Assembly (NCBI GenBank): GCA_002490425.1
Contig: DKTZ01000035.1
Coordinates: 12,024 to 76,023 of the forward strand
Direction: 5' to 3'
Length of the DNA stretch: 64,000 nt
Source: Ruminococcaceae bacterium UBA7217
GTDB taxonomy: Bacteria; Bacillota; Clostridia; Oscillospirales; Acutalibacteraceae
The notes under the pieces were generated by a model. The model saw only the letters and a program-made list of their open reading frames with translations, was not told the origin of the DNA and made no database searches. Shown piece after piece: positions 29,253 to 49,597 of this stretch. Each line of letters begins with the position of its first letter. The stretch's first letter is position 1. Made by a program: the position numbers and the translations under genes.

Positions 29253-29282
29253 CAGCGAGAGATTCAACTCTCGCTGTTTTTT
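29253..29282. terminator. bidirectional terminator between the capA-like gene (+) and potD (-)
   Basis: CAGCGAGAG-ATTCAA-CTCTCGCTG flanked by an A-run and a T-run. Confidence 0.6.
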
Positions 29283-30522
29283 AAATGTCATAATATTTTT
29301 TCATTTTGCGTTTGTGAAGGGCAGCAATTATAACAACTACCGCAATTAACGTTATGCAAATAAAGAACGCAGTATATACCCATTCCGACTCATTACCGCC
29401 TTTAACCTTCATCCAAAGGGTGTTCATATACTGTAAAGTATCATTGGGAAGATTGTGAAATACCTGCGAATGAGTAATATCGCCGTCGTCAGGATAAACG
29501 GCTTTTGAATCGATAAGTGAATATTCACTGTTTTCCATAACTGCCTTATTAGGTGTGGCGTAATAAATATACTCTGCATTTGCAAGGGCAATTTCAGGCT
29601 CCATCATAAAGTTAATAAATGCCTCTGCGCCCTTTTTATTTTGTGCGCTTGCAGGAATACAGAATGCGTCGTAAAACGAGTTTACGCCCTCTTTCGGGAA
29701 AACGTAATCCAAATCCGGATTATTTTCAACCATTACCTCATAGTCGCCTGCATAATATGCCGCAAAATAATAATCGCCGCTTTCCATTTTAACGAAAACC
29801 TCATCCATAACGTAAGATGGCTGAACCTTTTCACGCTGTTCCTTTAAAAGCTCTGCCGCCGCATCCCAATCGGCTGTGTTTGTGCTGTTAAGATCCTGCC
29901 CAAGCATAAACTGAGCTATCGCAAAGGAGTCACGGGGGTTATTAAACATCAGCACCTTGCCCTTGTACTGCTCATCCCAAAGAACGCTCCAGCTGTCGGG
30001 CTTTTCTTTAACATATTTCGTGTTGTAAATAAGAACAGTAGTTCCGATGTTATAAATTACGGCGTAATCTTTAATTTTCTCACCGTTTACGGTGTCTTCA
30101 AGCAAATAGCCGTACCTTTCACTGTCAAAAAACTTTTCGTAATTGGGGATATTGTTAAAGTCAATTTTTTGAAGCGCACCCTCTGACATCAGCTTTTCAA
30201 CAGTATAATCCGACGGAACAACAATGTCATAGCTGACTCCGCCGCCCGAAAGCTTGGAATACATATTTTCATTCGATTCAAAGGTGGTGTAATTTACAGA
30301 GCAACCTGTTAAATGCTCAAACTCTTTAATTACATCAATATCTTCATCGGAAATGTATTCGCCCCAGTTATAGACATTAAGCTTTGTGCCCTGAAGCCCT
30401 AAATTTTTATAATAATTTACCGTTTCTTCCGAAAACTCAATATAATCGTAAGCAAAGGCAGGAAAAATGCAAGCGGACATTAAAATCACAAAAATAAGAA
30501 GGAAAGCAAAAAACTTTTTCAT
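29281..30522 (-). CDS. potD: spermidine/putrescine ABC transporter substrate-binding protein with an extra C-terminal TM anchor
   Basis: PotD-like SBP (LNVYNWGEYI..., PKEG). It is the last gene of the potABCD order. The C-terminus is WVYTAFFICITLIAVVVIIAALHKRKMKK. Confidence 0.8.
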   Translation of the reverse strand: MKKFFAFLLIFVILMSACIFPAFAYDYIEFSEETVNYYKNLGLQGTKLNVYNWGEYISDEDIDVIKEFEHLTGCSVNYTTFESNENMYSKLSGGGVSYDIVVPSDYTVEKLMSEGALQKIDFNNIPNYEKFFDSERYGYLLEDTVNGEKIKDYAVIYNIGTTVLIYNTKYVKEKPDSWSVLWDEQYKGKVLMFNNPRDSFAIAQFMLGQDLNSTNTADWDAAAELLKEQREKVQPSYVMDEVFVKMESGDYYFAAYYAGDYEVMVENNPDLDYVFPKEGVNSFYDAFCIPASAQNKKGAEAFINFMMEPEIALANAEYIYYATPNKAVMENSEYSLIDSKAVYPDDGDITHSQVFHNLPNDTLQYMNTLWMKVKGGNESEWVYTAFFICITLIAVVVIIAALHKRKMKKYYDI

Positions 30523-31346
30523 CTGTCTTCCCCCTTTTCTTTTCTCTGCTTTTTGTCCGAATTTGACTGCGCAATGTTCATCAAAATAAGCAAAACAAGA
30601 ATTACAACAAATATAAGCGTAGAAAGTGCGTACATATCGGGCTTTACACGCTTTTTTGTCATTGAGAAAATGTGTATGGGGAGCGTTTGAAAATCTGGTC
30701 CGTTTGTGAAATAGCTTATAATAAAGTCGTCAAGTGAAAGTGTAAACGCCATTATTGCGCCCGAAACAATCCCCGAACGGATTTGGGGCAAAACAACCTT
30801 GAAAAACGCCTTTACGGGGTGACAGCCCAAATCCTGCGCCGCCTCGAAAACACGTGGGTCAGACTGCCTGAGCTTCGGCAAAACGGAAAGAATTACATAG
30901 GGTAACTGAAATGTGATGTGCGCAATTAAAATTGTTGCAAAGCCCAGCACATTCGTCCTGTTCATCAGTACACCTGCAAACACAAACAGAAGCATCATTG
31001 AAATACCCGTTACAATTTCGGGATTCATCATCGGAATGTTTGTTGCAGTCATTACGGACGATTTCAAAAATTTATTTTTCATATTGTAAATTCCGACTGC
31101 CGCCGCCGAGCCTAAAAGCGTTGAAACAACTGAAGAAATCACTGCTAAAACGACAGTATTTTTAAGTGCGTTCATAGTAATGCTGTCATTAAAAAGGTGG
31201 CGGTACCACTGAAGTGAAAAACCATCCATAATATAAGTGCTTTCACTCCCGTTAAAGGAAAACACCGTCATTACAACCATCGGCGCATAAAGGAAAATAA
31301 ACACAAGCGCTATATAAAGCTTTGAAAGAGGTGAAGTCTTTGTCAC
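30519..31346 (-). CDS. potC: spermidine/putrescine ABC transporter permease
   Basis: Six-TM permease with the EAA loop (FEAAQDLG). It overlaps both neighbours by 4 nt. Confidence 0.85.
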   Translation of the reverse strand: MTKTSPLSKLYIALVFIFLYAPMVVMTVFSFNGSESTYIMDGFSLQWYRHLFNDSITMNALKNTVVLAVISSVVSTLLGSAAAVGIYNMKNKFLKSSVMTATNIPMMNPEIVTGISMMLLFVFAGVLMNRTNVLGFATILIAHITFQLPYVILSVLPKLRQSDPRVFEAAQDLGCHPVKAFFKVVLPQIRSGIVSGAIMAFTLSLDDFIISYFTNGPDFQTLPIHIFSMTKKRVKPDMYALSTLIFVVILVLLILMNIAQSNSDKKQRKEKGEDR

Positions 31347-32173
31347 ATCAACACGCTCCCTTCATCCTCACTGTCGGTAAAGTAGCCGAGCACACCGAGG
31401 CAGATTAAAATCATTACCATAAGAAGCAATGAGAGCGCCGCACCGAGATTATAGTTATTGGCAGTTTGGAACTGACCTTCAATAACGTCGCCGATAAGAT
31501 TTATCTGACCGCCGCCGAGCTTTTGAGTAATGTAAAATGTGCTGACGGACGGAACGAAAACCATTGTAATGCCGCTGACAACTCCGGGAACGGAAAGCGG
31601 AATAATTACCTTTCTTATGCAGTGCATTTTACCGCAGCCCAAATCCTGTGCCGCCTCCAAAAGAGAACGGTCCATTTTTGTCATAACGGTGTAAATAGGC
31701 AAAATCATATATGGCAGGAAATTATATACCATACCGAGTATTACAGCGCCCGGAGTGTTAAGCATTGTGACTGGGTCTATTCCGAAAAGTCCCAAAAATG
31801 AGTTTATTACTCCCGATTCTCCTAAAATCGTCATCCAGGAATATGTACGGATAAGAAAGCTCATCCACATCGGTAGCATAACGAGCATTACTGCCGTTCT
31901 TTGAAAAGAAGTTCCCGTATGAGCCAAATAATATGCAAACGGATAAGCGATTAAAAGACAGATAAGCGTAGCGACAGCACCGTACCCTACCGAGAGAATA
32001 AACGTGCTCAAATAGTCGCCTATGCCCTTTACATTATCAAGCGTAAAAGCACCTGTTCTATCGGTAAAAGCATAGTAAATTACCATTATGAGCGGAGCTA
32101 TAATGAAAAGCACCGACCAAAGAATATACGGTGCATTTATAAGCTTTGTAAGAAGTGGAGAACGCTTCATCAC
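31343..32173 (-). CDS. potB: spermidine/putrescine ABC transporter permease
   Basis: Permease with an [12 protein letters not shown] loop. Confidence 0.85.
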
Positions 32174-33306
32174 TCGCCCTCCTCCTCTGAAGAAACAGTC
32201 GGGTCGGAAAGCTCGTCAAACTCTTCGCTGAATGAACTGTAATCGCCGTAAAGTCCCGAATATTCGGACTTTTTCATTATGTGAATTTCGTCAGGCTTAA
32301 TTGAAATACCTATTATATCTCCGACCTCTGACTTGTCGGTAGTCTGAATCATCCACTTAAAGCCGTTAATATCAACGATTATTTCATAGTGAACGCCTTT
32401 AAAGGTTACAGAAGTAACCTCACCTTTGAGCATACCCTCGCTTTCGGGCACAATGTCAACGTCCTCAGGGCGGACTACAACGTCAACAGGCTCGTTCTGT
32501 TTAAAGCCCTTGTCAACGCACTTAAAGCGCATACCCTCAAATTCAACATTGAAATCCTCACGCATAATTCCGTCAAGAATGTTACTTTCTCCGATAAAAT
32601 CCGCAACGAATGCGTTTTTCGGCTCATTGTAAATATCTGTAGGAGAGCCGATATGCTGAATTTCACCGTTGTTCATAACAACAATGGTGTCCGACATTGA
32701 AAGAGCCTCTTCCTGGTCGTGCGTAACATAAATAAAGGTTATGCCCAGCTTCTGTTGAATGTTTTTAAGCTCAACCTGCATATCCTTGCGAAGCTTTAAG
32801 TCCAGAGCTCCCAAAGGCTCGTCAAGCAAAACAACTCTCGGATTAACCGCAAGCGCACGGGCAATAGCCACTCTTTGCTGCTGACCGCCCGAAAGTGAAT
32901 TGATATTTCTTGAGCCGAAGCCCTTAAGATTTACAAGCTCAAGCATTTCACGAACCTTCGCCTGAATATCCTTTTCTTTCATCTTCTTAAGGCGCAAACC
33001 GAAAGCAATATTTTCATATACATTCAAATACGGAAACAACGCATAACGCTGAAAAATGGTGTTAACCTGCCTTTTGTAAGGCGGAACACCATTGATATTT
33101 TTACCCTCAAAAATCACATCGCCCGAATCGGGATTCAAAAACCCTGCAATTATCCTGAGGGTTGTGGTTTTACCGCACCCGGAAGGACCGAGCAGAGTTA
33201 CAAATTCACCATCGTGAATCTGAAGGCTTATATTATTCAAAATTTTCTGACCGTCAAAGCTGACGCTGATGTTCTGCAAATCAATAATAACAGGATTGTT
33301 TTTCAA
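32170..33306 (-). CDS. potA: spermidine/putrescine ABC transporter ATP-binding protein
   Basis: Walker A (GPSGCGKTT), [15 protein letters not shown], Walker B (LLDEPL) and a C-terminal TOBE-like domain. Confidence 0.9.
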
Positions 33307-40897: not shown

Positions 40898-42577
40898 ATG
40901 CCGAACTGTTTAACATTAAAAAAATCCAACTGCAAAAACTGCTATAAATGTATTCGCCACTGTCCCGTAAAGGCAATCCGTTTTTCGGGAAATCAGGCTC
41001 ATATCATCGGCAACGAGTGTATTCTTTGCGGTCAGTGCTTTGTTGTCTGTCCTCAAAATGCAAAGGAAATTGTTGACGAAACCGAAAAGGTTAAGGTTCT
41101 TCTTCAGTCGGGCGACCCCGTTATTGTCAGTCTTGCACCGTCATTTGTTGCCAATTACGACGGCACGGGAATAAATTCAATGAGAAAGGCACTTAAAAAG
41201 CTGGGCTTTTACGATGTTGAAGAAACGGCAATCGGTGCAACAATAGTAAAAACAGAATACGAAAGAATGATTAAAGAGGATGAGAGGGATCTTATAATTT
41301 CCTCATGCTGTCATTCCATAAATCTTCTTATTCAAAAGCATTACCCCGCGGCGCTCCCGTACCTTGCGGACATAATGTCCCCAATGCAGGCGCACTGTAC
41401 CGATATAAAAAAGCGTTATAAAAATGCTAAAACCGTTTTCATAGGACCTTGCGTTGCAAAAAAGGACGAGGCAGAGCATTACGAGGGAATTGTCGACGCA
41501 GTTTTAACCTTTGAGGAACTAACCCAATGGCTGAAAGCAGAAAACATTGAAATTGAGTCGGAAACAGACAACGATGTTTGCAGCCGTGCGCGTTTCTTCC
41601 CGACAACAGGCGGTATACTTAAAACTATGGCTCAGGAAAACACGGGTTATACATATTTAGCAATTGACGGAGTTGAAAACTGTATTGCCGCACTTAAAGA
41701 CATCGAAAGCGGTAAAATTCATAACTGCTTTATTGAAATGTCAGCTTGTGTCGGCAGCTGTTCGGGCGGCCCCGTTATGGAGAAATACCACCGCACAGCG
41801 GCAGTTAAGGATTACATTACCATTGCAAATTATGCAGGTCCTAAGGATTTTGAGATATCTCAGCCTGCGGCAAAGGACCTTAAAAAGAACTTTGAATTTA
41901 TTGAACAGCGTCTTCCGCAGCCGAGCGAGAGTGAAATTAACGCAGTGCTTCGTCAGATGGGCAAATTCAAGCCCTCACAGGAGCTTAACTGCGGCTCCTG
42001 CGGCTATAATACCTGCCGTGAAAAGGCGGCGGCGATAATTCAGGGTAAGGCTGAAATTTCAATGTGTCTGCCTTTCCTTAAGGATAAAGCCGAGAGCTTT
42101 TCCGATACTGTTGTCAACAATTCACCAAACGGACTTATTGTACTTAACGAACAGCTTGAGGTTCAGCAGATTAACAAAGCCGCAAAAGAAATTATGAACA
42201 TCCGCTATGACTCGGATGTTCTCGGCACGCAGGTTATAAGAATCCTTGACCCTGCGCCCTTTATGAAGGTTCGTGACACAGGCAGAGGAATACACAACGA
42301 GCGTGTTTACCTTGCCGAATACAAGCGTTACGTTGAGCAAACCATTGTTTACGACCGTGATTCAAGAATGCTTGTGGGCATTATGCGTGATGTTACCGAC
42401 GAGCAGTATGAGAGAGAAAAGAAAGAGGATATAAGCAAGCAAACAGTTGAGGTTGCCGACAAGGTTGTTGAAAAGCAGATGAGAATTGTTCAGGAAATAG
42501 CATCACTTCTCGGTGAAACCGCCGCTGAAACGAAAATTGCACTTTCAAAGCTTAAGGAGTCAATAACCGATGAATGA
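40898..42577 (+). CDS. hydS: HydS-type (group C, putative sensory) [FeFe]-hydrogenase homologue with a C-terminal PAS domain
   Basis: Two CxxCxxCxxxCP ferredoxin motifs (residues 11-22 and 41-52). H-domain motifs are SSCCHS (135-140), GPCVAKKDE (183-191) and EMSACVGSCSGGP (280-292). An extra motif C365-x2-C368-x4-C373-x16-C390 follows, then a PAS-like region (about 400-520) and a helical tail. Confidence 0.8.
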   Translation: MPNCLTLKKSNCKNCYKCIRHCPVKAIRFSGNQAHIIGNECILCGQCFVVCPQNAKEIVDETEKVKVLLQSGDPVIVSLAPSFVANYDGTGINSMRKALKKLGFYDVEETAIGATIVKTEYERMIKEDERDLIISSCCHSINLLIQKHYPAALPYLADIMSPMQAHCTDIKKRYKNAKTVFIGPCVAKKDEAEHYEGIVDAVLTFEELTQWLKAENIEIESETDNDVCSRARFFPTTGGILKTMAQENTGYTYLAIDGVENCIAALKDIESGKIHNCFIEMSACVGSCSGGPVMEKYHRTAAVKDYITIANYAGPKDFEISQPAAKDLKKNFEFIEQRLPQPSESEINAVLRQMGKFKPSQELNCGSCGYNTCREKAAAIIQGKAEISMCLPFLKDKAESFSDTVVNNSPNGLIVLNEQLEVQQINKAAKEIMNIRYDSDVLGTQVIRILDPAPFMKVRDTGRGIHNERVYLAEYKRYVEQTIVYDRDSRMLVGIMRDVTDEQYEREKKEDISKQTVEVADKVVEKQMRIVQEIASLLGETAAETKIALSKLKESITDE

Positions 42578-43742
42578 TTTATGTGCCGATATTGGATATA
42601 AAAGTATAAATCATTACGGCGAAGAACTTTGCGGCGACCATGTTGACATTGTTGAGCCGAATGATGAATCAACCGTTATTGTGCTTTCGGACGGTCTTGG
42701 AAGCGGCGTTAAGGCGAGCATTCTCTCTACTCTTACGTCAAAAATTATTTCTACTATGCTGTCCGAAGGCTTATCGCTTGAGGAATGTGTTGAAACCATA
42801 GCCGCAACCTTACCTGTTTGCTCGGTAAGGGGCGTTGCTTATTCGACATTTACGATTATTCACCTTAAGCAAAACCAAACCGCTGAAATTATTCAGTACG
42901 ATAACCCCCATGCAATTATTATCCGTGACGAGAAAAATTGGGACTATCCCAAAACGGAAATGAATATAGGCGGAAAGAAAATTTTTAAATCCGTTATCAA
43001 ATTGCAGGAAAATGACATTTTTATCGCAATGAGCGACGGCTGTCCCCACGCAGGCATAGGCACTGCCTACAATTTCGGCTGGAAGAGAGAGGATATAATC
43101 ACCTTTATGGAGGCGCTCGCACACGTCGGATACACTGCGAAAACGCTTTCCACAATGCTTGTTGACGAATGTGACAATCTTTACGGTCACGAGCCGGGCG
43201 ACGATGCAACAGCCTGTGTTGTAAAAATACGAAAAAGAGAGCCGATGAATATTCTGTTCGGCCCGCCCTCAAACCGTGACGATGCAGACAGAATGATGTC
43301 CCTGTTTTTCGGGAAAGAGGGCAAGCACATTATCTGCGGCGGAACAACCTCGTCAATTGCCGCTAAATTTTTGAGAAAGCCTCTCAGAGCATCGCTTAAT
43401 TTTGAGCAGAGCGACATTCCCCCTATTGCGGAGCTTGAGGGTGTTGACCTCGTAACCGAGGGCGTTATTACTGTCAACAGAGTACTTGAATACGCTAAGG
43501 ACTACCTTGCGGAGAATAAGCAGTACGAGCATTGGGGCTTTAAAAATGACGGAGCGTCTTTAATTTGCCGTTTGCTTTTTGAAGAGGCTACGGATATAAA
43601 CTTTTATGTTGGCAGAGCAATAAATCCTGCTCACCAAAACCCCGACTTGCCCATAAATTTCAGCATAAAAATGAATCTTGTTGAAGAGCTTTCAAAATGT
43701 CTTAAACAGATGGGCAAAAAAATCAAAGTCAGTTATTTTTAA
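42570..43742 (+). CDS. PP2C/SpoIIE-family serine phosphatase with an uncharacterised ~170-aa C-terminal domain
   Basis: CGD (21-23), DGLGSGVKAS (41-50), MSDG and DDATACVV motifs. The start overlaps the hydS stop (ATGAATGA). Confidence 0.8.
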   Translation: MNDLCADIGYKSINHYGEELCGDHVDIVEPNDESTVIVLSDGLGSGVKASILSTLTSKIISTMLSEGLSLEECVETIAATLPVCSVRGVAYSTFTIIHLKQNQTAEIIQYDNPHAIIIRDEKNWDYPKTEMNIGGKKIFKSVIKLQENDIFIAMSDGCPHAGIGTAYNFGWKREDIITFMEALAHVGYTAKTLSTMLVDECDNLYGHEPGDDATACVVKIRKREPMNILFGPPSNRDDADRMMSLFFGKEGKHIICGGTTSSIAAKFLRKPLRASLNFEQSDIPPIAELEGVDLVTEGVITVNRVLEYAKDYLAENKQYEHWGFKNDGASLICRLLFEEATDINFYVGRAINPAHQNPDLPINFSIKMNLVEELSKCLKQMGKKIKVSYF

Positions 43743-43808
43743 GTCGGCGAGTATAATCAGATAAAAAACTGTTTCGGATTGTATTTGTCAACTCAAGGAG
43801 AAAGCAGT

Positions 43809-45230
43809 ATGAGAAAATTTGACACCAAGGTTCAGTATTTGAAATATAAGGTTTTAAGAGAAGTGGCTAACCGTGCGTGGAACGACACTTTGCTTCCGAC
43901 CTTGTTTGATATACCAAAGGCAATAGTTCCCGGCAAGACCTCGACCATGCGTTGTTGTGTCTACAAAGAACGCGCAATTTTGGGCGAACGTGTAAAAATC
44001 GCAATGGGCGGCAACAAGGAAAACCCAAATGTTATTGAGGTTATTGACATTGCCTGTGATGAATGTCCTGCGGCAGGTTATGAGGTAACCGACTCGTGCA
44101 GAGGCTGTCTTGCCCACAGGTGTGAGGACGTCTGCAAAAGAGGAGCTATTTCATTTGACCACAATCACGTGGCACACATTGACAAGTCAAAGTGTGTTGA
44201 ATGCGGTCAGTGCGCAAAGGTTTGCCCATATTCGGCGATTATTAACCGTAAGCGCCCCTGCCAAATCGCCTGCAAGGTAAAGGCAATTTCGATAAATGAA
44301 GAAAATGCCGCCGCTATTGACAATAACAAGTGTATTCAGTGCGGTGCTTGCGTTTACCAGTGCCCGTTCGGCGCAATTACCGATAAATCGTACATCTTGA
44401 ATGTAATTGATATGATAAAAAAGAGCGAGAACAATCAAAAATACAAGGTTTATGCCGTTGTCGCTCCGTCAATTTCAAGTCAGTTTAATTATGCAAAGCT
44501 CGGTCAGGTTATTTCGGGGCTTAAAGAGCTTGGCTTTTTTACAGTTGTTGAAGCGGCACTCGGAGCGGATATGGTAGCAATGGCGGAATCAAAAGAACTC
44601 AGCGAAAAGGGCTTCCTTACAAGCTCATGCTGTCCTGCATTTGTGCAGTATATAAAATCCTCATTCCCTGCTCTTTTGCCCTTCGTTTCTCATAACCTTT
44701 CCCCCATGGCAACGCTTGCGAAATACATAAAGGAAACAGACGGAAATGCAAAGGTTGTGTTTATAGGTCCGTGCACAGCTAAAAAAGCCGAAGCACAGCT
44801 TGACAGTGTGAAGCCTTATGTTGACTCAGTGCTTACCTTTGAGGAGCTTCAGGCGCTTTATGACAGCAAGGATATTGACATTACAACGCTTCCGGAAGAT
44901 GTGCTTGACAATGCCTCTTATTACGGCAGAATTTTTGCCCGTTCCGGCGGACTTTCCGATGCAGTGGCACAGGGACTTAAAGAACAAAATATTGACTTTA
45001 CTGTAAAACCCGCAGTTTGCGACGGAATTGAGGCTTGCAAGGTGGCTCTTCTCAAAAAAAGCAAAAATGTGCTTGATGCCAACTTTATTGAGGGTATGGC
45101 GTGCATTGGAGGGTGCATCGGCGGCGCAGGCTGTCTTACCCACGGCGAAAAGAACAAGGCTGAGGTTGACAAATATGGCAAAGAGGCTTATGAAAAAACC
45201 ATAGGCGATGCCGTATCTTTTATTAAATAA
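43809..45230 (+). CDS. hydA: [FeFe]-hydrogenase, catalytic type (473 aa; motif pattern suggests group B)
   Basis: Cys-rich N-terminus (RCC, CDEC, CRGC..C...C). Two 4Fe-4S motifs (CVECGQCAKVCP, CIQCGACVYQCP). H-cluster motifs TSSCCPAF, IGPCTAKKAE and EGMACIGGCIGGAGC. The ATG at 43809 follows AAGGAG. Confidence 0.85.
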   Translation: MRKFDTKVQYLKYKVLREVANRAWNDTLLPTLFDIPKAIVPGKTSTMRCCVYKERAILGERVKIAMGGNKENPNVIEVIDIACDECPAAGYEVTDSCRGCLAHRCEDVCKRGAISFDHNHVAHIDKSKCVECGQCAKVCPYSAIINRKRPCQIACKVKAISINEENAAAIDNNKCIQCGACVYQCPFGAITDKSYILNVIDMIKKSENNQKYKVYAVVAPSISSQFNYAKLGQVISGLKELGFFTVVEAALGADMVAMAESKELSEKGFLTSSCCPAFVQYIKSSFPALLPFVSHNLSPMATLAKYIKETDGNAKVVFIGPCTAKKAEAQLDSVKPYVDSVLTFEELQALYDSKDIDITTLPEDVLDNASYYGRIFARSGGLSDAVAQGLKEQNIDFTVKPAVCDGIEACKVALLKKSKNVLDANFIEGMACIGGCIGGAGCLTHGEKNKAEVDKYGKEAYEKTIGDAVSFIK

Positions 45231-45249: not shown

Positions 45250-45281
45250 GGGCAGATACTTTTTTTGTATCTGCCTTTTTG
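45250..45281. terminator. bidirectional terminator between hydA (+) and the B12-regulated operon (-)
   Basis: AGGCAGATAC-TTTTTTT-GTATCTGCCT followed by TTTTT. A-rich sequence on the other side serves the minus strand. Confidence 0.75.
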
Positions 45282-45307: not shown

Positions 45308-46444
45308 TCAATCAGCCTGTTTCTTCTTTTTCATTACAAAAGCGGTTGAAGCAATAACGCCGAGGGATATTACCGCCACAGACAATACCGAAAATCCGCC
45401 GTCCGTATTGGGAATATCGGGATTTTTATCGACACCGCTGTTGCCGTTTTCCGTGCTCGGTTCTGTAACATCAGGTGTATTGGGCTTTGTATCGGGATTG
45501 TCGGGAGTGACATCGGGAGAATCGGGAGTGTTTTCGGGCAAAATGCTGTAATATGCAGAAAGTCCCTTTATTGCATCCGCCGCTGAATATTTGCTTTCAG
45601 CGCCGTCATAAGTGTAGCTTCCCTCTGTTTCGCCCTTAAACGCCAAAAGTGCATTATACAAACCGGTAAGCTCTGAAAGATTTTCACTTACAGTACCTTT
45701 ATATGTGTAATATGCACATTTTGCCATTAAAGCAAGCGCCGTTGAGTTAACATTGGGCGCTGTGCCGTACTCAGGGTTATAGCAATATCCGCCCTCTGTT
45801 TTGTATGTGTCAAGTACCTTTGCCGCGTCATCAATATAAGCGTTATAACAGTCAAGTCCGCTCTGCGAAATTGCCGAAAGGAACATTGCCGTATTGTCAC
45901 AGCCATAACCCCAGTAATCCATACCGCTTCCCATAGTGTAATAATTCTCAATAAAGCTGTCACAAAGCGATTTTACAAAAGCTTCGCCGCAATACTTTGC
46001 CGCAACGGGAATAATGAAATTATAGAAATAAGGACTTGAAACCTCTTTGTTATCAAGCTTTTCAAAAAGCTCAACAAGGTTTACGGAATTCACATTTGTG
46101 GGGTCGCCGCCCATAGCGTCAAGTATGCCGATTACAGCAGCATAAGAGCTTATATTTTCGCCGTAAGCCGTAACTAATTTTCCGTCGTTATCGTCAAGAT
46201 TTGCCTTTACACTTGCAAGAAATCCGTTATAAAACGCATTTGCGCTTTCGCTCGTACCTACAAGATAGTAATAATCCGCAGCGTTGTCTGCCGTATAGCC
46301 TGAAGCCGCACTGCTTACATAGCCGACCGCATTATCAATTTCTTTCTTAACGCTGTCCTTGCTCGTTAAGCCGACTGCCAATACCGACAGCGAAAGTGAC
46401 AAAGCGAGAATAAGTGCTAAACAGATTGATAAGGTTTTTTTCAT
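45308..46444 (-). CDS. secreted, C-terminally anchored surface protein with an aromatic/Gly-rich helical-repeat domain (prenyltransferase/terpene-cyclase-like alpha/alpha toroid suspected)
   Basis: Signal peptide (MKKTLSICLALILALSLSLSVLA). About 290 aa rich in Y/W/G/A repeats. Pro/Asp/Thr-rich linker (PENTPDSPDVTPDNPDTKPNTPDVTEP). The end is IPNTDGG, a hydrophobic helix and KKKKQAD, resembling a sortase-type or plain TM anchor. Confidence 0.55.
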   Translation of the reverse strand: MKKTLSICLALILALSLSLSVLAVGLTSKDSVKKEIDNAVGYVSSAASGYTADNAADYYYLVGTSESANAFYNGFLASVKANLDDNDGKLVTAYGENISSYAAVIGILDAMGGDPTNVNSVNLVELFEKLDNKEVSSPYFYNFIIPVAAKYCGEAFVKSLCDSFIENYYTMGSGMDYWGYGCDNTAMFLSAISQSGLDCYNAYIDDAAKVLDTYKTEGGYCYNPEYGTAPNVNSTALALMAKCAYYTYKGTVSENLSELTGLYNALLAFKGETEGSYTYDGAESKYSAADAIKGLSAYYSILPENTPDSPDVTPDNPDTKPNTPDVTEPSTENGNSGVDKNPDIPNTDGGFSVLSVAVISLGVIASTAFVMKKKKQAD

Positions 46445-46488
46445 TTTTTATTGCTCCTTTAATTTTTATTCAAAGACAGCGGTTTTTT

Positions 46489-47169
46489 CTAACAAACATA
46501 AGAAAGAACTATGCTGTCTCCGTTTTTTATTTTATAATTTCCGAGTCCCACGCTCGGAGATTTACCGTTAACGGTATAAACCCAACCGCTCTGTGCTCCG
46601 CAGTCCTTTTCTTCAATACCACCGATGCCCACAACATAAACACCGAAAGAAGATTTTTGTGCGTTAAGAGCTATACCTTTTTGGACGCAGGCCTTTTGCA
46701 AAACGTCAAAAGCCGAAGCACCGTCATCGAAATTCACGCTTACAGGCGAAAGAATTATTCCGTTTGACGGAACAAGGGAAATATCCTTTTTAAATTTATT
46801 TTTCTTGCTGAGTATTGATTTACACTCTATTTCAACGGTACAAACCGTTTTTGGCTGAGGCTGTGTAGATTTTTCGGTAGTGGTTACCGTAGGTACCGTG
46901 CTGATTTCGGTTTTTGACGAGGGATTTTTCGTTTCCGTATTTCCCTTTTCGGTACTGCCGTGAGTCTTTGTGATTTCAGTTGAATTTGTTTCACTCGAAT
47001 TTTCAATAGAAATGACACTTTCTTTTTCCGAATATTCCGATGTGTTTTCTGCCGTGCCTGTATTTTCACCGATTGCACTTACATTCAGTTCTGCATTCGG
47101 CGATTTTCCGCAGGCAGAAAACGAAATACATATTATTAAGGATAAAACAACTGCGATAATCTTTTTCAT
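46489..47169 (-). CDS. DUF4430-domain lipoprotein (homologue of the transcobalamin beta-domain)
   Basis: Lipobox in MKKIIAVVLSLIICISFSAC-G and a Ser/Thr/Glu-rich linker. The C-terminal ~110 aa carry DUF4430 hallmarks (CTVEIECKSIL, GASAFDVLQKA, YVVGIGGIEEKDCGAQSGWVYTVNGKSPSVGLGNYKIKNGDSIVLSY). The start is taken at the ATG at 47169. Confidence 0.75.
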   Translation of the reverse strand: MKKIIAVVLSLIICISFSACGKSPNAELNVSAIGENTGTAENTSEYSEKESVISIENSSETNSTEITKTHGSTEKGNTETKNPSSKTEISTVPTVTTTEKSTQPQPKTVCTVEIECKSILSKKNKFKKDISLVPSNGIILSPVSVNFDDGASAFDVLQKACVQKGIALNAQKSSFGVYVVGIGGIEEKDCGAQSGWVYTVNGKSPSVGLGNYKIKNGDSIVLSYVC

Positions 47170-47172
47170 AAG

Positions 47173-47199
47173 CAAAAAACCTCTGCTTTTGGGCAGAGG
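47173..47199 (-). terminator. expression-platform terminator of the cobalamin riboswitch
   Basis: The minus strand reads CCTCTGC-CCAAAA-GCAGAGG followed by TTTTTT, ending 4 nt before the ATG of the DUF4430 gene. Confidence 0.65.
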
Positions 47200-47261
47200 T
47201 ATAGTGTAAAGATAAGTTTCTTTAACTCTCCCGCTTGCCCAAGAGTTTAACAAAATTTTAG

Positions 47262-47440
47262 CTTAAGGCAGGTCTCCCGACTTGAGACAAAGCTGACTTT
47301 TAATCAGCGCATAAGCACGCCTTCTCGAAAAAAATCCAATGGCAATTGTGCTTAATTCATCTGATACGGTAATGGCGGTTGCTCAGGATTCTGACCTGAT
47401 TCCCTTTTAATTTCGGTTTCCCGAAAACCGTTAAGCAAAT
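47262..47440 (-). promoter_or_regulatory. cobalamin (B12) riboswitch
   Basis: The minus strand reads AAAAGGGAATCAGGTCAGAATCCTGAGCAACCGCCATTACCGT ... TTGCCATTGG ... GAGAAGGCG ... AAGTCGGGAGACCTGCC. This matches the conserved GGGAA-GGTG-AA-TCC core, the GCCACTG-like element, and the B12 box (consensus rAGYCMGgAgaCCkGCc). Confidence 0.85.
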
Positions 47441-47454
47441 ATTTAATTGTATTT

Positions 47455-47483
47455 ATTTTATATCAATATATTTTAATTGTCAA
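47455..47483 (-). promoter_or_regulatory. consensus sigmaA promoter driving the riboswitch
   Basis: The minus strand reads TTGACA (47483-47478), 17-nt spacer, TAAAAT (47460-47455). Confidence 0.6.
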
Positions 47484-47496
47484 TAGCATAAAAAAC

Positions 47497-47517
47497 ACCC
47501 GTGATATACACGGGCAT
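47497..47517 (-). terminator. terminator hairpin, copy 1 of a 21-bp perfect direct repeat
   Basis: ACCCGTGATATACACGGGCAT. The minus strand reads CCCGTG-TATAT-CACGGG followed by TGTTTTTT. It is identical to 47775-47795. Confidence 0.6.
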
Positions 47518-47720: not shown

Positions 47721-47774
47721 TGACCTGTTCTTTTGTGCACATTATCGAATGATATATATTTTAGAAAAGAAAAT

Positions 47775-47795
47775 ACCCGTGATATACACGGGCAT
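47775..47795 (-). terminator. terminator hairpin after the lipase gene, copy 2 of the 21-bp direct repeat
   Basis: ACCCGTGATATACACGGGCAT. On the minus strand the hairpin is followed by TATTTTCTTTTC. Confidence 0.6.
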
Positions 47796-47828: not shown

Positions 47829-49505
47829 TTACGCTTTGTAATCCGTCGCATAGGTGTCTGCAATTGACTGAACCTCATCTTTTGAAATAACGCCGTCAAT
47901 TGTTATGCCGTCTGCTCTTTGAAGATTTACCTTTTCGAGTGTGTCACGCTCAAGCAGGTGTCTTAAGGCAAGTCTTGCGTCAACAAGGTCAATGGTGCCG
48001 TCCATATTAACATCACCGTATTTATCAAGATAAACAGACATATAGTCAGCGTCAATATTGTAATACAGGAACTGAGTGAACAGCGGATTTGAATGAACGG
48101 TATACTGTTTGTCAGCCGTTATAAGCCATGCGTGAAGCGCCGCTGAGCTGTCGCTGTAAAACTTAACGTGATCCAAATTCTTAATAAACCATGTGCACTC
48201 GGGGAAAGCGCAGGTAGAAGCATCAACCACTGTGTCGGGTGAAACGTGATTGTGCCCGTCGGAATTCTTCTGAGCATAATTTTCACCGAGAGTTGTGTTT
48301 CTGTCTGCAACCGTTGCGCCGTAGCTTGTGTGTGCTGTTTCGATTATGCCGTCTGAGTTCATTGTGGACGACGGTGTTACGGGAGCTATCTGGCGGTTAT
48401 AGTTTGAAACTATGCTGAAGCAGATATTTTCATCCTTATAATACTCGTCACAACGCTCTTTAAGTGTTGCCTGAACCTCATCGTGATAAGCCGTCAGCTT
48501 TTCAATGTAAGAATCAGACGGGCGGAATGAGAAAGTATCGTTGTTATACATATAGTTAATTGCTTCGTCGAATTTATCTTCGGGGACAAATGACCAAACG
48601 CCGGCATACATTCCGAAATACGGAATCAAAAGCTCATCATAAAGTCTGTCCTTATATTCGCCTTCATTAAGGAGCGGAGCAAATTTTTCAATAACCTTTT
48701 CAAAAAGTCCTGTGTATTTTAAGAGCTCACCTAAAGCATTTTTATCGGGACTGCCGTTAATTGCCTGAACCAAAATGTCGGTAAGTCCGTCAGCGTCAAC
48801 GCTGAGTTTGCCTGTGAAAAGGTCACCGCACATTTCAAGTCCTGTAAATGCTCCTGAGAACATACCTATATTTTTAATATCTTTTGTTCCGTACTGCGCT
48901 AAATATGCCTGAACAATGCAAGTACCCATTGACTGACCGTTTATTGACACCTTGTCGTGGCCTGTTGTTTTCTTTACCTTTTGAATATAATCGTTAAGGT
49001 CTTTAGCGGTATCCATAGGGCTTCTGCGCCAGTCATGGCTGAAAATAAACGTGTGGTCGCCGCCGACTGTTTTGGCACATTCAAGGGAAAGTCCGTCCTG
49101 ACCGTCGCCTTTGATTTTGTAATCGTATGTATCGCAGCTCTCTTCATAAAAGCGTTCAACCGTAACCGTCGGGTCAACCGAGTCGCCGTTTTCGTCACAT
49201 TTAATCGGGTCAAAAAGCTGTTTTGCTGCAGGAATAACTGAGTCAAGCAAAGCGCCTGCGTCACCGTCCGAAAGGAACTGTAAAAGTGATGGAACACAAG
49301 GCAGAACCGCCTCAACTATTGTTTTTGCCTCAGGAGCAAAAACCTGAGTTCCCTCGCCGTTAACAAGCGGAACATGACCGAAGCCTACTACGGAAACTAC
49401 GGGAGTTTTACCGCAGTTGCACTTTTTCTCTGCCGCAAACGACGGAGCAAGCATTGAAAACATCATCAATGCGCAAAGTATTACGCAAACTATACGTTTT
49501 TTCAT
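47829..49505 (-). CDS. secreted alpha/beta-hydrolase (LCAT/PGAP1-like lipase/esterase) with a C-terminal dockerin
   Basis: Signal peptide MKKRIVCVILCALMMFSMLAPSFA. HDWR motif and nucleophile elbow GQSMGT. The C-terminus is dockerin-like (GDVNMDGTIDLVDARLALRHLL ... ADGITIDGVISKDEVQSIAD). Confidence 0.7.
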   Translation of the reverse strand: MKKRIVCVILCALMMFSMLAPSFAAEKKCNCGKTPVVSVVGFGHVPLVNGEGTQVFAPEAKTIVEAVLPCVPSLLQFLSDGDAGALLDSVIPAAKQLFDPIKCDENGDSVDPTVTVERFYEESCDTYDYKIKGDGQDGLSLECAKTVGGDHTFIFSHDWRRSPMDTAKDLNDYIQKVKKTTGHDKVSINGQSMGTCIVQAYLAQYGTKDIKNIGMFSGAFTGLEMCGDLFTGKLSVDADGLTDILVQAINGSPDKNALGELLKYTGLFEKVIEKFAPLLNEGEYKDRLYDELLIPYFGMYAGVWSFVPEDKFDEAINYMYNNDTFSFRPSDSYIEKLTAYHDEVQATLKERCDEYYKDENICFSIVSNYNRQIAPVTPSSTMNSDGIIETAHTSYGATVADRNTTLGENYAQKNSDGHNHVSPDTVVDASTCAFPECTWFIKNLDHVKFYSDSSAALHAWLITADKQYTVHSNPLFTQFLYYNIDADYMSVYLDKYGDVNMDGTIDLVDARLALRHLLERDTLEKVNLQRADGITIDGVISKDEVQSIADTYATDYKA

Positions 49506-49597
49506 TTCAAACATCCTTTCCCAAATTGAAACAATATATAACCGAATTTATTTTACCATAAATCTCCTTTGAAATCAACTGTGTTCTTTTAACAAAA

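Follow-up and report, generated by a model that had tools for sequence, protein, structure and literature searches.

The locus described here raises a simple question: what might a Gram-positive anaerobe gain from making two surface-anchored proteins under the control of a cobalamin riboswitch? An earlier note, made from the sequence alone, had pointed to a split transcobalamin-like pair, consisting of a DUF4430 lipoprotein (gene 1) and an anchored helical-repeat protein (gene 2). Having analyzed the window, i.e. the whole 64-kb stretch of DNA in which the locus lies, we lean with some reserve towards a reading of this kind: a two-gene B12-repressed operon whose products may well form a clamp in trans, capture corrinoids at the surface of the organism, a gut member of the Clostridia (Oscillospiraceae/Ruminococcaceae), and feed an importer encoded elsewhere. 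The span of 45308-47169 originally given for the unit covers both genes, but the riboswitch and promoter extend it to about 47483 (Table 1).

The operon, its riboswitch and its surroundings

The sole Rfam family detected in the window is the Cobalamin riboswitch, RF00174, which matches on the minus strand with 96.4 bits (E 8.8e-23), against a gathering score of 31.5 bits; the aptamer is full length, with model positions 1-189 of 189 covered. A promoter-like site lies directly 5' of it. Between the aptamer and the ATG of gene 1 (47169) there is a terminator hairpin, seen in both the MFE and the centroid folds, which occupies 47200..47179 of the minus strand, is followed by TTTTTTGCTT and ends 10 nt ahead of the ATG. 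The GAGG ribosome-binding site of gene 1 sits inside the 3' arm of this hairpin. From this layout of terminator and ribosome-binding site we infer an OFF switch: binding of B12 would turn the operon off.

Gene 2 begins 44 nt past gene 1, in a different reading frame and with an AGGAG ribosome-binding site of its own; independent gene calls on the public contigs also give the 226-aa and 378-aa products. Past gene 2 there is a hairpin, GGCAGATAC-N7-GTATCTGCC, with T-runs on both strands (plus strand: GGCAGATAC-TTTTTTT-GTATCTGCC-TTTTTGTT). Hence, it also terminates the convergent hydrogenase-like gene, whose stop lies at 45230. The proposal that the riboswitch controls exactly two genes, with a bidirectional terminator at the end of the operon, is thus upheld.

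The neighbors of the pair in the window are hydrogenase-like, SpoIIE and esterase-like genes. A scan of 22 ORFs of the window for a B12 importer or a B12-dependent enzyme found none. The sole ABC system among these ORFs (29281-33306), 12 kb away, is of the SBP_bac_8/BPD_transp_1/TOBE type; as it is neither BtuFCD nor ECF and stands alone, we rejected it as a B12 importer. Likewise, no importer ATPase was found adjoining the pair in related loci: the ABC ATPases in their vicinity are either PotA-like, syntenic and 3-5 kb distant, or belong to an MsbA-type exporter, and were rejected for this role. The lack of a transporter in cis, remarked upon in the earlier note, therefore holds both within the window and across the related loci.

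Table 1. Features of the riboswitch-controlled operon (window coordinates; a dot in the strand column marks a feature of both strands)
Feature	Position	Strand	Basis
Promoter-like site, TTGACA-17 nt-TAAAAT	47483..47455	-	consensus match alone, 11/12 positions
Cobalamin riboswitch aptamer (RF00174)	47250..47447	-	Rfam covariance model
Expression platform: 8-bp terminator hairpin ACCTCTGC/GCAGAGGT and U-run	47170..47200	-	terminator scan, folding, sequence
Gene 1: 226-aa lipoprotein with C-terminal DUF4430/SLBB (transcobalamin beta-like) domain	46489..47169	-	ORF, Pfam, AF2, Foldseek
Gene 1 signal peptide and lipobox FSAC, Cys20	47110..47169	-	sequence
Gene 1 Ser/Thr/Glu/Lys-rich disordered tether, about residues 21-105	46855..47109	-	pLDDT
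Gene 1 beta-grasp domain, residues 106-226	46492..46854	-	AF2 pLDDT >90, Foldseek, PF14478
Gene 2: 378-aa secreted, wall-anchored alpha/alpha-toroid protein	45308..46444	-	ORF, AF2, Foldseek, profile
Gene 2 Sec signal peptide, residues 1-23	46376..46444	-	Ala23 invariant, helix 2-22
Gene 2 (alpha/alpha)6 toroid, residues ~28-303 (~275 aa)	45536..46363	-	AF2, Foldseek, profile
Gene 2 Pro/Asp/Thr-rich stalk, residues 304-343	45416..45535	-	pLDDT <50 over 306-344, sequence
Gene 2 cell-wall sorting signal and stop codon: IPNTD (344-348), hydrophobic segment, KKKK tail	45308..45415	-	sequence, homologues
Bidirectional intrinsic terminator of the operon and the convergent hydrogenase-like gene	45251..45275	.	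terminator scan (-), sequence (+)

Domain architecture and anchoring of the two proteins

The gene 1 product starts with MKKIIAVVLSLIICISFSAC|GKS and bears the lipobox F-S-A-C20. At least 32 of 33 homologous partner genes encode the lipobox cysteine (30 by regular expression and two further by eye, ...FFGC and ...LFGC); the remaining one, L041, has a misassigned ORF start. The tether of about 85 residues that follows is of variable length in the homologues and has a pLDDT below 50 over residues 25-103 of the AF2 model. It leads into a C-terminal domain with five conserved cysteines (Cys110, Cys116, Cys161, Cys190 and the C-terminal Cys226), within which residues 150-225 match PF14478 (DUF4430) over profile positions 1-71 of 72 (E 7.2e-19; 68.5 bits, the cut-off being 23.8 bits). 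The 19 significant Foldseek matches of this domain comprise 17 chains of transcobalamin (TC), haptocorrin (HC) and intrinsic factor (IF) and both chains of 3u7z, a solved but uncharacterized bacterial DUF4430 structure. The isolated beta-domain of human TC (5no0) is matched with an E-value of 1.9e-7, a TM-score of 0.75 and an rmsd of 3.2 A. Judged by profile and predicted structure, the C-terminal domain of gene 1 is a homologue of the TC beta-domain, as the earlier note had it, and it may be a candidate for binding corrinoids; cyanocobalamin is bound by the isolated TC beta-domain (PDB 5np4).

The gene 2 product has an invariant Ala23 at its predicted signal-peptide cleavage site, and its main domain is modeled by AF2 as entirely helical, with a pLDDT above 90 over residues 30-300. 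Every top Foldseek match of this protein is an alpha/alpha toroid, the best ones being GH105 and GH88 hydrolases, PL enzymes and class II terpene cyclases. TC chains are also found (7qbg_C with E 8e-3; 2bb6; 4zrp), although not as the best-scoring matches (TC ranks 20, 31 and 33), and the TM-scores are merely 0.4-0.5, which points to a common fold and not to a common active site.

The toroid is recognized by no Pfam model: 0 of 42 close family members match PF00432 or PF13243, and PF01122 is matched neither by gene 2 nor by its 42 family members or 48 distant relatives. Sequence and profile searches with gene 2 against PDB sequences returned signal-peptide noise and one marginal epimerase match, with no TC sequence found by the family profile. 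The family profile search yielded 906 representatives, and profile A2 extends to three proteins with annotated toroids: P0175 (653-904, E 2e-26, overlapping Prenyltrans at 733-828), P0184 (23-303, E 1e-23, overlapping SQHop_cyclase_C at 166-250) and P0206 (281-556, E 6e-17, overlapping SQHop_cyclase_C at 435-518). By this transitive route via the family profile, the gene 2 domain is homologous to prenyltransferase/squalene-hopene-cyclase-like toroids. The alpha/alpha toroid suspected from the sequence is thus corroborated by the AF2 model, the top Foldseek matches and the reach of the profile. Specific homology to the TC alpha-domain (PF01122) is on this evidence unsupported; glycoside-hydrolase and terpene-cyclase toroids score at least equally. 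A TC-alpha-like role for gene 2 is hence argued from its fold class and its partner. Two of the proteins reached by the profile, P0175 and P0206, also carry DUF4430: these natural fusions of toroid and DUF4430 are Rosetta-stone evidence of a functional link between the two domains.

The company of GH105, GH88, PL and cyclase structures at the top of the Foldseek matches, together with the invariant acidic residues D183 and D206 (full-length numbering) and the strongly conserved motif G-x-G-M-x-Y-W-G-x-x-C-D-N-T-A, could also mean that gene 2 is an enzyme: a surface hydrolase or lyase (GH88/GH105-like or cyclase-like) made at B12 scarcity, which might release carrier-bound corrinoids or modify them, their product being caught by the DUF4430 protein. 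We consider this highly improbable, since the protein matches no glycoside-hydrolase, lyase or cyclase family by sequence, its structural similarities are of the fold-level kind noted above, and its partner and riboswitch indicate ligand capture. Furthermore, the DxDD motif of class II cyclases is absent from the gene 2 translation, making a binding role likelier than that of a cyclase. A class II terpene cyclase or prenyltransferase was rejected as the primary reading on account of the missing DxDD, the lack of a direct Pfam match and the extracellular location of the protein. A thioester domain, which came into consideration through alpha2-macroglobulin and C3d toroids among the Foldseek matches, was also rejected: gene 2 lacks a CxEQ motif, and its invariant positions are occupied by Gly, Asp, Tyr and Ser.

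The gene 2 product ends in IPNTDGG, a hydrophobic segment (23 residues after IPNTD) and KKKKQAD; the signal peptide, Pro/Asp/Thr linker and anchor listed in the earlier note are all present. The fifth residue of IPNTD is D, where canonical LPXTG has G; Pro345 and Thr347 are nearly invariant in the homologues. Across 32 complete homologous loci the sorting signals are of the SPxTG type in 24, IPNTD in six, FPKTG in one and the variant SPATS in one, and weak matches to the Pfam Gram_pos_anchor model are seen in 9 of 42 family members. Other relatives of gene 2 have dockerin, SLH, choline-binding or FN3 modules. These features are consistent with processing of gene 2 by a sortase.

Conservation of the pair and related capture systems

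The two genes are adjacent in 33 species-level genome loci, reaching down to 30% identity. In all of these the DUF4430 lipoprotein gene is immediately upstream of the toroid gene on the same strand, and the alpha-like and beta-like domains are on separate polypeptides (33/33). Of the 33 species loci scanned, 32 have a cobalamin riboswitch directly upstream at the equivalent position, and none has an importer as a neighbor; L001 and L003 have the riboswitch as well. The survey of co-occurrence suggested in the earlier note thus links pair and riboswitch. The L005/L015 lineage has the pair without the riboswitch. In a further branch (L037-L040, Eubacterium coprostanoligenes ATCC 51222 among them) a toroid-FN3 gene is under riboswitch control, and no DUF4430 gene adjoins it. 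Hence, it is possible that the toroid does not strictly need a DUF4430 partner.

These lone toroid genes are among the observations that would suit a relay in place of a clamp, with each protein binding corrinoid independently: the wall toroid would capture it at the periphery and pass it inward to the DUF4430 lipoprotein, which would load the importer, similar to the Isd relay for heme in Gram-positive bacteria or to that of BtuJ, BtuH and BtuG in Bacteroides. To our knowledge, however, all solved TC, IF and HC structures hold the ligand sandwiched between both domains. The toroid-DUF4430 fusions also speak against a relay, the strict adjacency in 33 loci suits a complex at least equally, and the long tethers would permit the two domains to meet. 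In favor of a relay, the proteins are anchored in separate layers, wall and membrane, the isolated TC beta-domain does bind cyanocobalamin by itself (PDB 5np4), and multistage extracellular relays are documented for Bacteroides (PMC13616437). Weighing these points, we hold the relay to be rather unlikely and retain the clamp as the preferred reading.

Several known systems resemble the pair in part. Closest in fold are the animal carriers TC, IF and HC (PF01122 and PF14478), which combine the same (alpha/alpha)6 toroid and beta-grasp SLBB domain and whose beta-domains are the best PDB matches of the gene 1 domain. These are extracellular B12 carriers made as one soluble chain, whereas here there are two polypeptides, each anchored, expressed under a riboswitch and without a receptor-binding context, and the gene 2 toroid has no detectable similarity to PF01122. 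In layout, the Isd system is comparable: its sortase-anchored wall proteins and membrane lipoprotein take a tetrapyrrole through the wall as far as an ABC importer and are repressed when the nutrient is plentiful. Its proteins have no homology to the pair; they use NEAT domains, are under Fur control and have their transporter in cis. Bacteroides BtuG, BtuH and BtuJ are likewise riboswitch-controlled, anchored and surface-exposed; they bind B12, supply it to a transporter and confer an edge over competitors in the gut. They are Gram-negative outer-membrane lipoproteins encoded within btuB loci, with folds and families unrelated to those of the pair (PMC6143338, PMC8941943, PMC13616437).

The nearest precedents are bacterial, and they qualify the novelty implied by the earlier note. 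Secreted proteins of low-GC Gram-positive bacteria combining SLBB domains and alpha/alpha toroids were predicted in 2007 to be B12 scavengers in organisms without full biosynthesis (Burroughs, Balaji, Iyer and Aravind, PMC1796856). Like the present pair, these have a secreted or wall-anchored SLBB domain cooperating with a toroid. They are mostly fusions, with the toroid on the N- or the C-terminal side of SLBB, or operons that encode another SLBB paralogue, and they usually adjoin CbiO/CbiQ-type ECF genes; the present pair has its domains on separate chains, in a standalone operon without a transporter. Riboswitch control, a conserved feature here, was not analyzed in that study, and the gene 2 toroid family differs from those proteins in being covered by no Pfam model. 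In Lactobacillus sakei, Lsa1839 and Lsa1840 are separate TC beta-like and alpha-like proteins encoded in the lsa1836-1840 ECF-like operon; it was proposed that they join outside the cell as a heterodimer and capture a tetrapyrrole that is then imported (bioRxiv 10.1101/864751). They can be likened to the present pair by description; their genes lie inside an ECF transporter operon, whereas ours have a cobalamin riboswitch and no ECF or ABC importer genes adjacent to them. Given the 2007 prediction and the L. sakei pair, the operon is best viewed as a variant of a known, uncharacterized kind of protein. CbrUVT are ECF components and are not to be equated with these proteins.

The L. sakei pair was assigned to heme, not B12, by docking and uptake data (bioRxiv 10.1101/864751), and reviewers of the 2007 study warned that SLBB ligands may be diverse (PMC1796856). 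Moreover, conservation in the toroid family reveals no invariant His or other obvious Co-ligating residue. The ligand might thus be heme or another tetrapyrrole, or a precursor or degradation product of B12, instead of complete cobamides. This appears very unlikely to us: the riboswitch at 32 of the 33 species loci scanned ties expression specifically to B12 status, and the structural neighbors of gene 1 are exclusively B12 carriers along with the one uncharacterized bacterial DUF4430 structure.

A candidate trans-assembled clamp for corrinoids

In the mechanism that we favor, high intracellular cobalamin would make the riboswitch form the terminator, which would also hide the ribosome-binding site; at B12 scarcity, the two proteins would be made and exported. 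The gene 1 product would be lipid-anchored on the outer face of the membrane, with its flexible tether bearing the DUF4430/SLBB beta-grasp domain, while a sortase would join the gene 2 product to peptidoglycan via the LPXTG-like IPNTD, so that the stalk displays the toroid. These two domains correspond to the halves that clamp cobalamin in TC, IF and HC, and they would come together in trans, on the wall or inside it, to bind a corrinoid between them. The corrinoid would then be passed to an importer of the ECF-CbrT or BtuFCD type encoded elsewhere. The binding of corrinoids, the formation of a heterodimer with the geometry of a clamp and the hand-off to a transporter are the predicted parts of this scheme.

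Genes for B12-independent isozymes are also under the control of cobalamin riboswitches; hence, such control is by itself no proof of B12 binding. The two proteins might then have a B12-sparing or unrelated surface function, being needed at low B12 without any contact with corrinoids. Our literature searches (on DUF4430 function, riboswitch-linked toroids and CbrU/CbrV) found no experimental work on the pair, and no binding data for any bacterial DUF4430 protein or the gene 2 toroid family, which leaves room for such a function. Nevertheless, we give it hardly any credence, because it would be hard to account in this way for a B12 riboswitch in front of a gene whose product has a domain homologous to one of the B12 carriers, and the operon encodes no metabolic enzyme.

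A wider interpretation can be put forward tentatively, as a conjunction that we doubt somewhat more than we trust. In this, the pair would be a trans-assembled bacterial 'transcobalamin', with a wall-borne alpha half and a membrane-borne beta half that close on a cobamide only when both meet. It would be the Gram-positive counterpart of Bacteroides BtuG/H/J and would preserve, in an extant organism, the split ancestral form of the fused animal carriers. The toroid would represent a new corrinoid-binding family unannotated in Pfam, with about 900 representative clusters on the surfaces of Clostridia and with interchangeable anchors: sortase signal, dockerin, SLH, choline-binding repeats and FN3.

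There is competition for cobamides in the gut, and a 2026 review describes extracellular capture in Gram-positive Firmicutes as 'entirely uncharacterized' (PMC13616437). The operon offers a compact and conserved test case, in which one riboswitch and two genes recur in more than 30 species; the cultured E. coprostanoligenes has a relative of it. If the two proteins bind cobamides together, theirs would be a capture mechanism unrelated to the Bacteroides one. The proposal, if true, would assign a function to DUF4430 as well as to a large toroid family that lacks annotation, and would support the 2007 suggestion that the animal B12 carriers descended from Gram-positive surface proteins (PMC1796856). 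It would also allow better prediction of B12 auxotrophy and cross-feeding from metagenomes, for which importers alone are at present considered.

Operon structure and its leader

Two minus-strand genes, gene 1 coding for the DUF4430 lipoprotein and gene 2 coding for the toroid protein, lie behind a complete cobalamin riboswitch aptamer (96.4 bits, E 8.8e-23), the sole Rfam family found in the 64-kb window. The functional unit reaches upstream to about 47483, where a promoter-like site begins (see table). The leader hairpin, which lies past the aptamer and ahead of the first ATG, is part of the minimum-energy fold and of the centroid fold alike, and gene 1's GAGG ribosome-binding site falls in its 3' arm: hence, it constitutes a platform able both to stop transcription and to mask the ribosome-binding site. 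This layout is usual for an OFF switch, and we predict switching in that direction. At the distal end, a single hairpin ends both the riboswitch operon and the convergent hydrogenase-like gene (stop at 45230). The same two products were called independently on public contigs. The Rfam match, the terminator and the independent gene calls thereby confirm the riboswitch, two-gene operon and bidirectional terminator described in the earlier note.

Features of the operon and of the convergent hydrogenase cluster, in window coordinates
Feature	Position	Strand	Remarks
Promoter-like site	47483..47455	-	near consensus, TTGACA-17-TAAAAT
Cobalamin riboswitch aptamer	47250-47447	-	complete
Leader hairpin	47200..47179	-	8 bp, GC-rich, then TTTTTTGCTT; between aptamer and first ATG (47169)
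Gene 1	46489-47169	-	226 aa
Gene 2	45308-46444	-	378 aa; starts 44 nt past gene 1; own AGGAG site
Terminator hairpin	45251-45275	both	T-runs on both strands
[FeFe]-hydrogenase-like protein	40898-42577	+	extra C-terminal region
SpoIIE/PP2C phosphatase	42570-43742	+	8-nt overlap with the preceding hydrogenase-like gene
Second hydrogenase-like protein	43779-45230	+

Upstream of the promoter, a 34-nt direct repeat (47484-47517 and 47762-47795; 88% identical, 278 nt apart) holds the same terminator-like hairpin, CCCGTGATATACACGGG, in each copy. The copies flank a 278-nt stretch that lies between the esterase-like gene and the riboswitch promoter and has no convincing ORF; the repeat may stem from duplication of a terminator or from insertion of a small element.

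The two folded domains

The gene 1 product begins with a lipoprotein signal, MKKIIAVVLSLIICISFSAC/GKS, with the predicted lipidation site at Cys20. A lipobox Cys was detected by regular expression in 30 of the 33 partner genes and by eye in two more (...FFGC or ...LFGC); the third without a regex match, from locus L041, has a misassigned ORF start. The signal is followed by a Ser/Thr/Glu/Lys-rich segment (residues 25-103) that is disordered in the model and differs in length among homologues, and then by a domain modeled by AF2 with pLDDT above 90 (residues 106-226), in which DUF4430 (PF14478) matches residues 150-225 with E 7.2e-19. Foldseek returned 19 significant PDB matches to this domain: 17 chains of the animal B12 carriers transcobalamin (TC), haptocorrin and intrinsic factor, and the two chains of 3u7z, the solved structure of a DUF4430 protein from Ruminococcus gnavus. 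The isolated human TC β-domain (5no0) matches with E 1.9e-7 and a TM-score of 0.75; the matches that follow these 19 are generic ubiquitin-like folds with E above 0.05. These matches establish the gene 1 product as a membrane-tethered homologue of the TC β-domain, bearing out its earlier identification as a lipoprotein with a TC-β-like DUF4430. Across residues 110-226 (46492-46842) five cysteines are conserved in the lipoprotein family, an unusual trait in an anaerobe's surface protein: C110 and C116 (motif CTVxIEC), C161, C190 (motif EKDCG) and C226, the very last residue. These may be paired in disulfides or serve as ligands to a metal or cobalt.

The gene 2 product matches no Pfam or NCBIfam model. 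At 90% identity its family forms 64 clusters, which come from Oscillospiraceae and ‘Eubacterium’ MAGs. In the AF2 model, built on a 42-sequence alignment, residues 30-300 form a purely helical domain with pLDDT above 90, and the top Foldseek matches are all (α/α)6 toroids: GH105 and GH88 hydrolases, class II terpene/squalene-hopene cyclases and α2-macroglobulin/C3d domains, with TC appearing at ranks 20, 31 and 33. The proposal of a TC-α-like toroid therefore stands as to the fold class, but a specific relationship to the TC α-domain is not confirmed. An exhaustive profile search with A2, the trimmed toroid alignment of the family, yielded 906 representative clusters at E <= 1e-3 and 214 at E <= 1e-10. 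In three distant relatives the A2 match overlaps a known domain: P0175 (match 653-904, E 2e-26; Prenyltrans 733-828), P0184 (23-303, E 1e-23; SQHop_cyclase_C 166-250) and P0206 (281-556, E 6e-17; SQHop_cyclase_C 435-518), and these overlaps link the family at the sequence level to prenyltransferase/cyclase-type toroids. That the toroid is an enzyme is a minor alternative to ligand binding; the DxDD motif of class II cyclases is absent from the gene 2 sequence. P0184 lacks a DUF4430, which is present in the same polypeptide in P0175 (127-185) and P0206 (944-1019): such fusions are Rosetta-stone evidence suggesting that the toroid works together with DUF4430.

Conservation of the pair and its anchors

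Scanning one genome per species gave 39 loci. In 33 of them the toroid gene is immediately preceded by a DUF4430 ORF in the same orientation, at toroid identities as low as about 30%; three further loci are truncated at a contig end. The gene 1 and gene 2 types are co-inherited, and in some relatives fused. Of the 33 species loci scanned with Rfam, 32 have a cobalamin riboswitch immediately upstream, as do L001 and L003. These 32 include four loci, L037-L040 (among them that of E. coprostanoligenes ATCC 51222), with a toroid-FN3 gene and no upstream DUF4430; in this branch the toroid may work by itself or have its partner encoded at another site. Such stand-alone toroids favor the main rival to joint capture, namely a relay in which each protein binds the corrinoid alone, as does the binding of cyanocobalamin by the isolated TC β-domain (5np4). 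In the Eubacterium coprostanoligenes locus (L039, 5468-7077) the riboswitch precedes a single toroid-FN3 gene, and the next genes are DeoR, PfkB and PTS genes.

The L005/L015 lineage, in which Rfam found no riboswitch, has lost it: the pair (L005 7515-9062; L015 5394-6957) begins 37 nt past a phosphoribosyltransferase gene, which is also present in L001 and L003, ahead of their riboswitch. In the L005/L015 lineage the DUF4430 protein has a short tether and measures only 159-163 aa, and a plain membrane helix, in place of a sorting signal, terminates the toroid protein. A closely similar pair and riboswitch were seen in L042 and L043, from records labelled Agathobacter rectalis and Bifidobacteriaceae; the close match of their architecture and sequences to L041 (‘bacterium’) suggests binning contamination rather than a true occurrence in these taxa.

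C-terminal to the toroid, the gene 2 product has a disordered Pro/Asp/Thr stalk (residues 304-343), then the pentapeptide IPNTD, a 23-residue hydrophobic stretch and a KKKKQAD tail; Pro345 and Thr347 hardly vary. Among 32 complete homologous loci the sorting signals are of the SPxTG type in 24, IPNTD in six, FPKTG in one and the variant SPATS in one. The motif in the window is a variant sorting signal with D instead of G, and we infer its processing by sortase. Other relatives carry, in place of this module, a plain membrane helix or a dockerin, FN3, SLH, choline-binding or Big_6 repeats, as would be expected if the toroid is displayed at the surface on anchors that can be exchanged. This free exchange, with dockerins of type I and Big_6 in arrays, covers P0036 (48% identical to gene 2), P0175, P0184, P0206 and other relatives; several relatives of ~700 aa additionally have about 240 unannotated residues as an N-terminal extension ahead of the toroid.

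A candidate device for corrinoid capture

Expression of the pair is tied to B12 status via a conserved riboswitch whose switching is predicted; both products have export signals, with predicted anchors in different layers, a lipid in the membrane and a sorting signal in the wall; and in TC, intrinsic factor and haptocorrin cobalamin is sandwiched between domains of the same two folds as theirs. Under B12 scarcity the two domains, on long flexible tethers, would meet in or on the wall, clasp the corrinoid between them and then hand it to an unlinked importer. As far as in silico tests go, the split TC-like capture pair proposed earlier is supported, save for the specific TC-α homology, and with corrinoid binding and heterodimer formation as predictions. 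A B12-sparing function without binding is a minor rival to this clasp.

The claim of no transporter in cis holds both in the window and at related loci, none of which, among those examined, has an importer adjoining the pair. ABC ATPases within 6 kb of related loci were rejected as importers of the pair, being PotA-like syntenic genes or an MsbA-type exporter, and the 22 window ORFs scanned include a single ABC system, 12 kb off and not of the B12 type. Genes for [FeFe]-hydrogenase-like proteins, for a SpoIIE phosphatase and for a secreted esterase-like protein neighbor the operon in the window. The hydrogenase cluster (40898-45230, plus strand) looks like a sensory-hydrogenase regulatory module unrelated to the B12 pair. 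The esterase-like protein (47829-49514, minus strand; 561 aa) has no Pfam family, a GQSMG nucleophile-elbow motif and a weak match to the extracellular PHA depolymerase PhaZ7; its C-terminal DVNMDGTIDLVDA...DGITIDGVISKDE segment resembles a dockerin repeat pair, with no Pfam confirmation at E 1e-5.

The SLBB superfamily was defined by Burroughs et al. 2007 (PMC1796856), who described bacterial SLBB-toroid fusions bearing Gram-positive anchors as well as operons that include CbiO/CbiQ, and who predicted a role in B12 scavenging. The operon reported here is of that kind and not a new sort of system; it differs in being split, doubly anchored, riboswitch-controlled and without a transporter, and in its unannotated toroid family. 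A preprint on L. sakei describes separate TC β-like and α-like proteins in an ECF-like operon assigned to heme (10.1101/864751); accordingly, another tetrapyrrole as the ligand is a minor alternative here. Our literature search found no experimental data on bacterial DUF4430 or the gene 2 toroid family, and according to a 2026 review (PMC13616437) the capture of cobamides outside the cell is ‘entirely uncharacterized’ in Gram-positive Firmicutes. The concept of such B12 scavenging is nearly twenty years old, and this locus lets it be tested directly.
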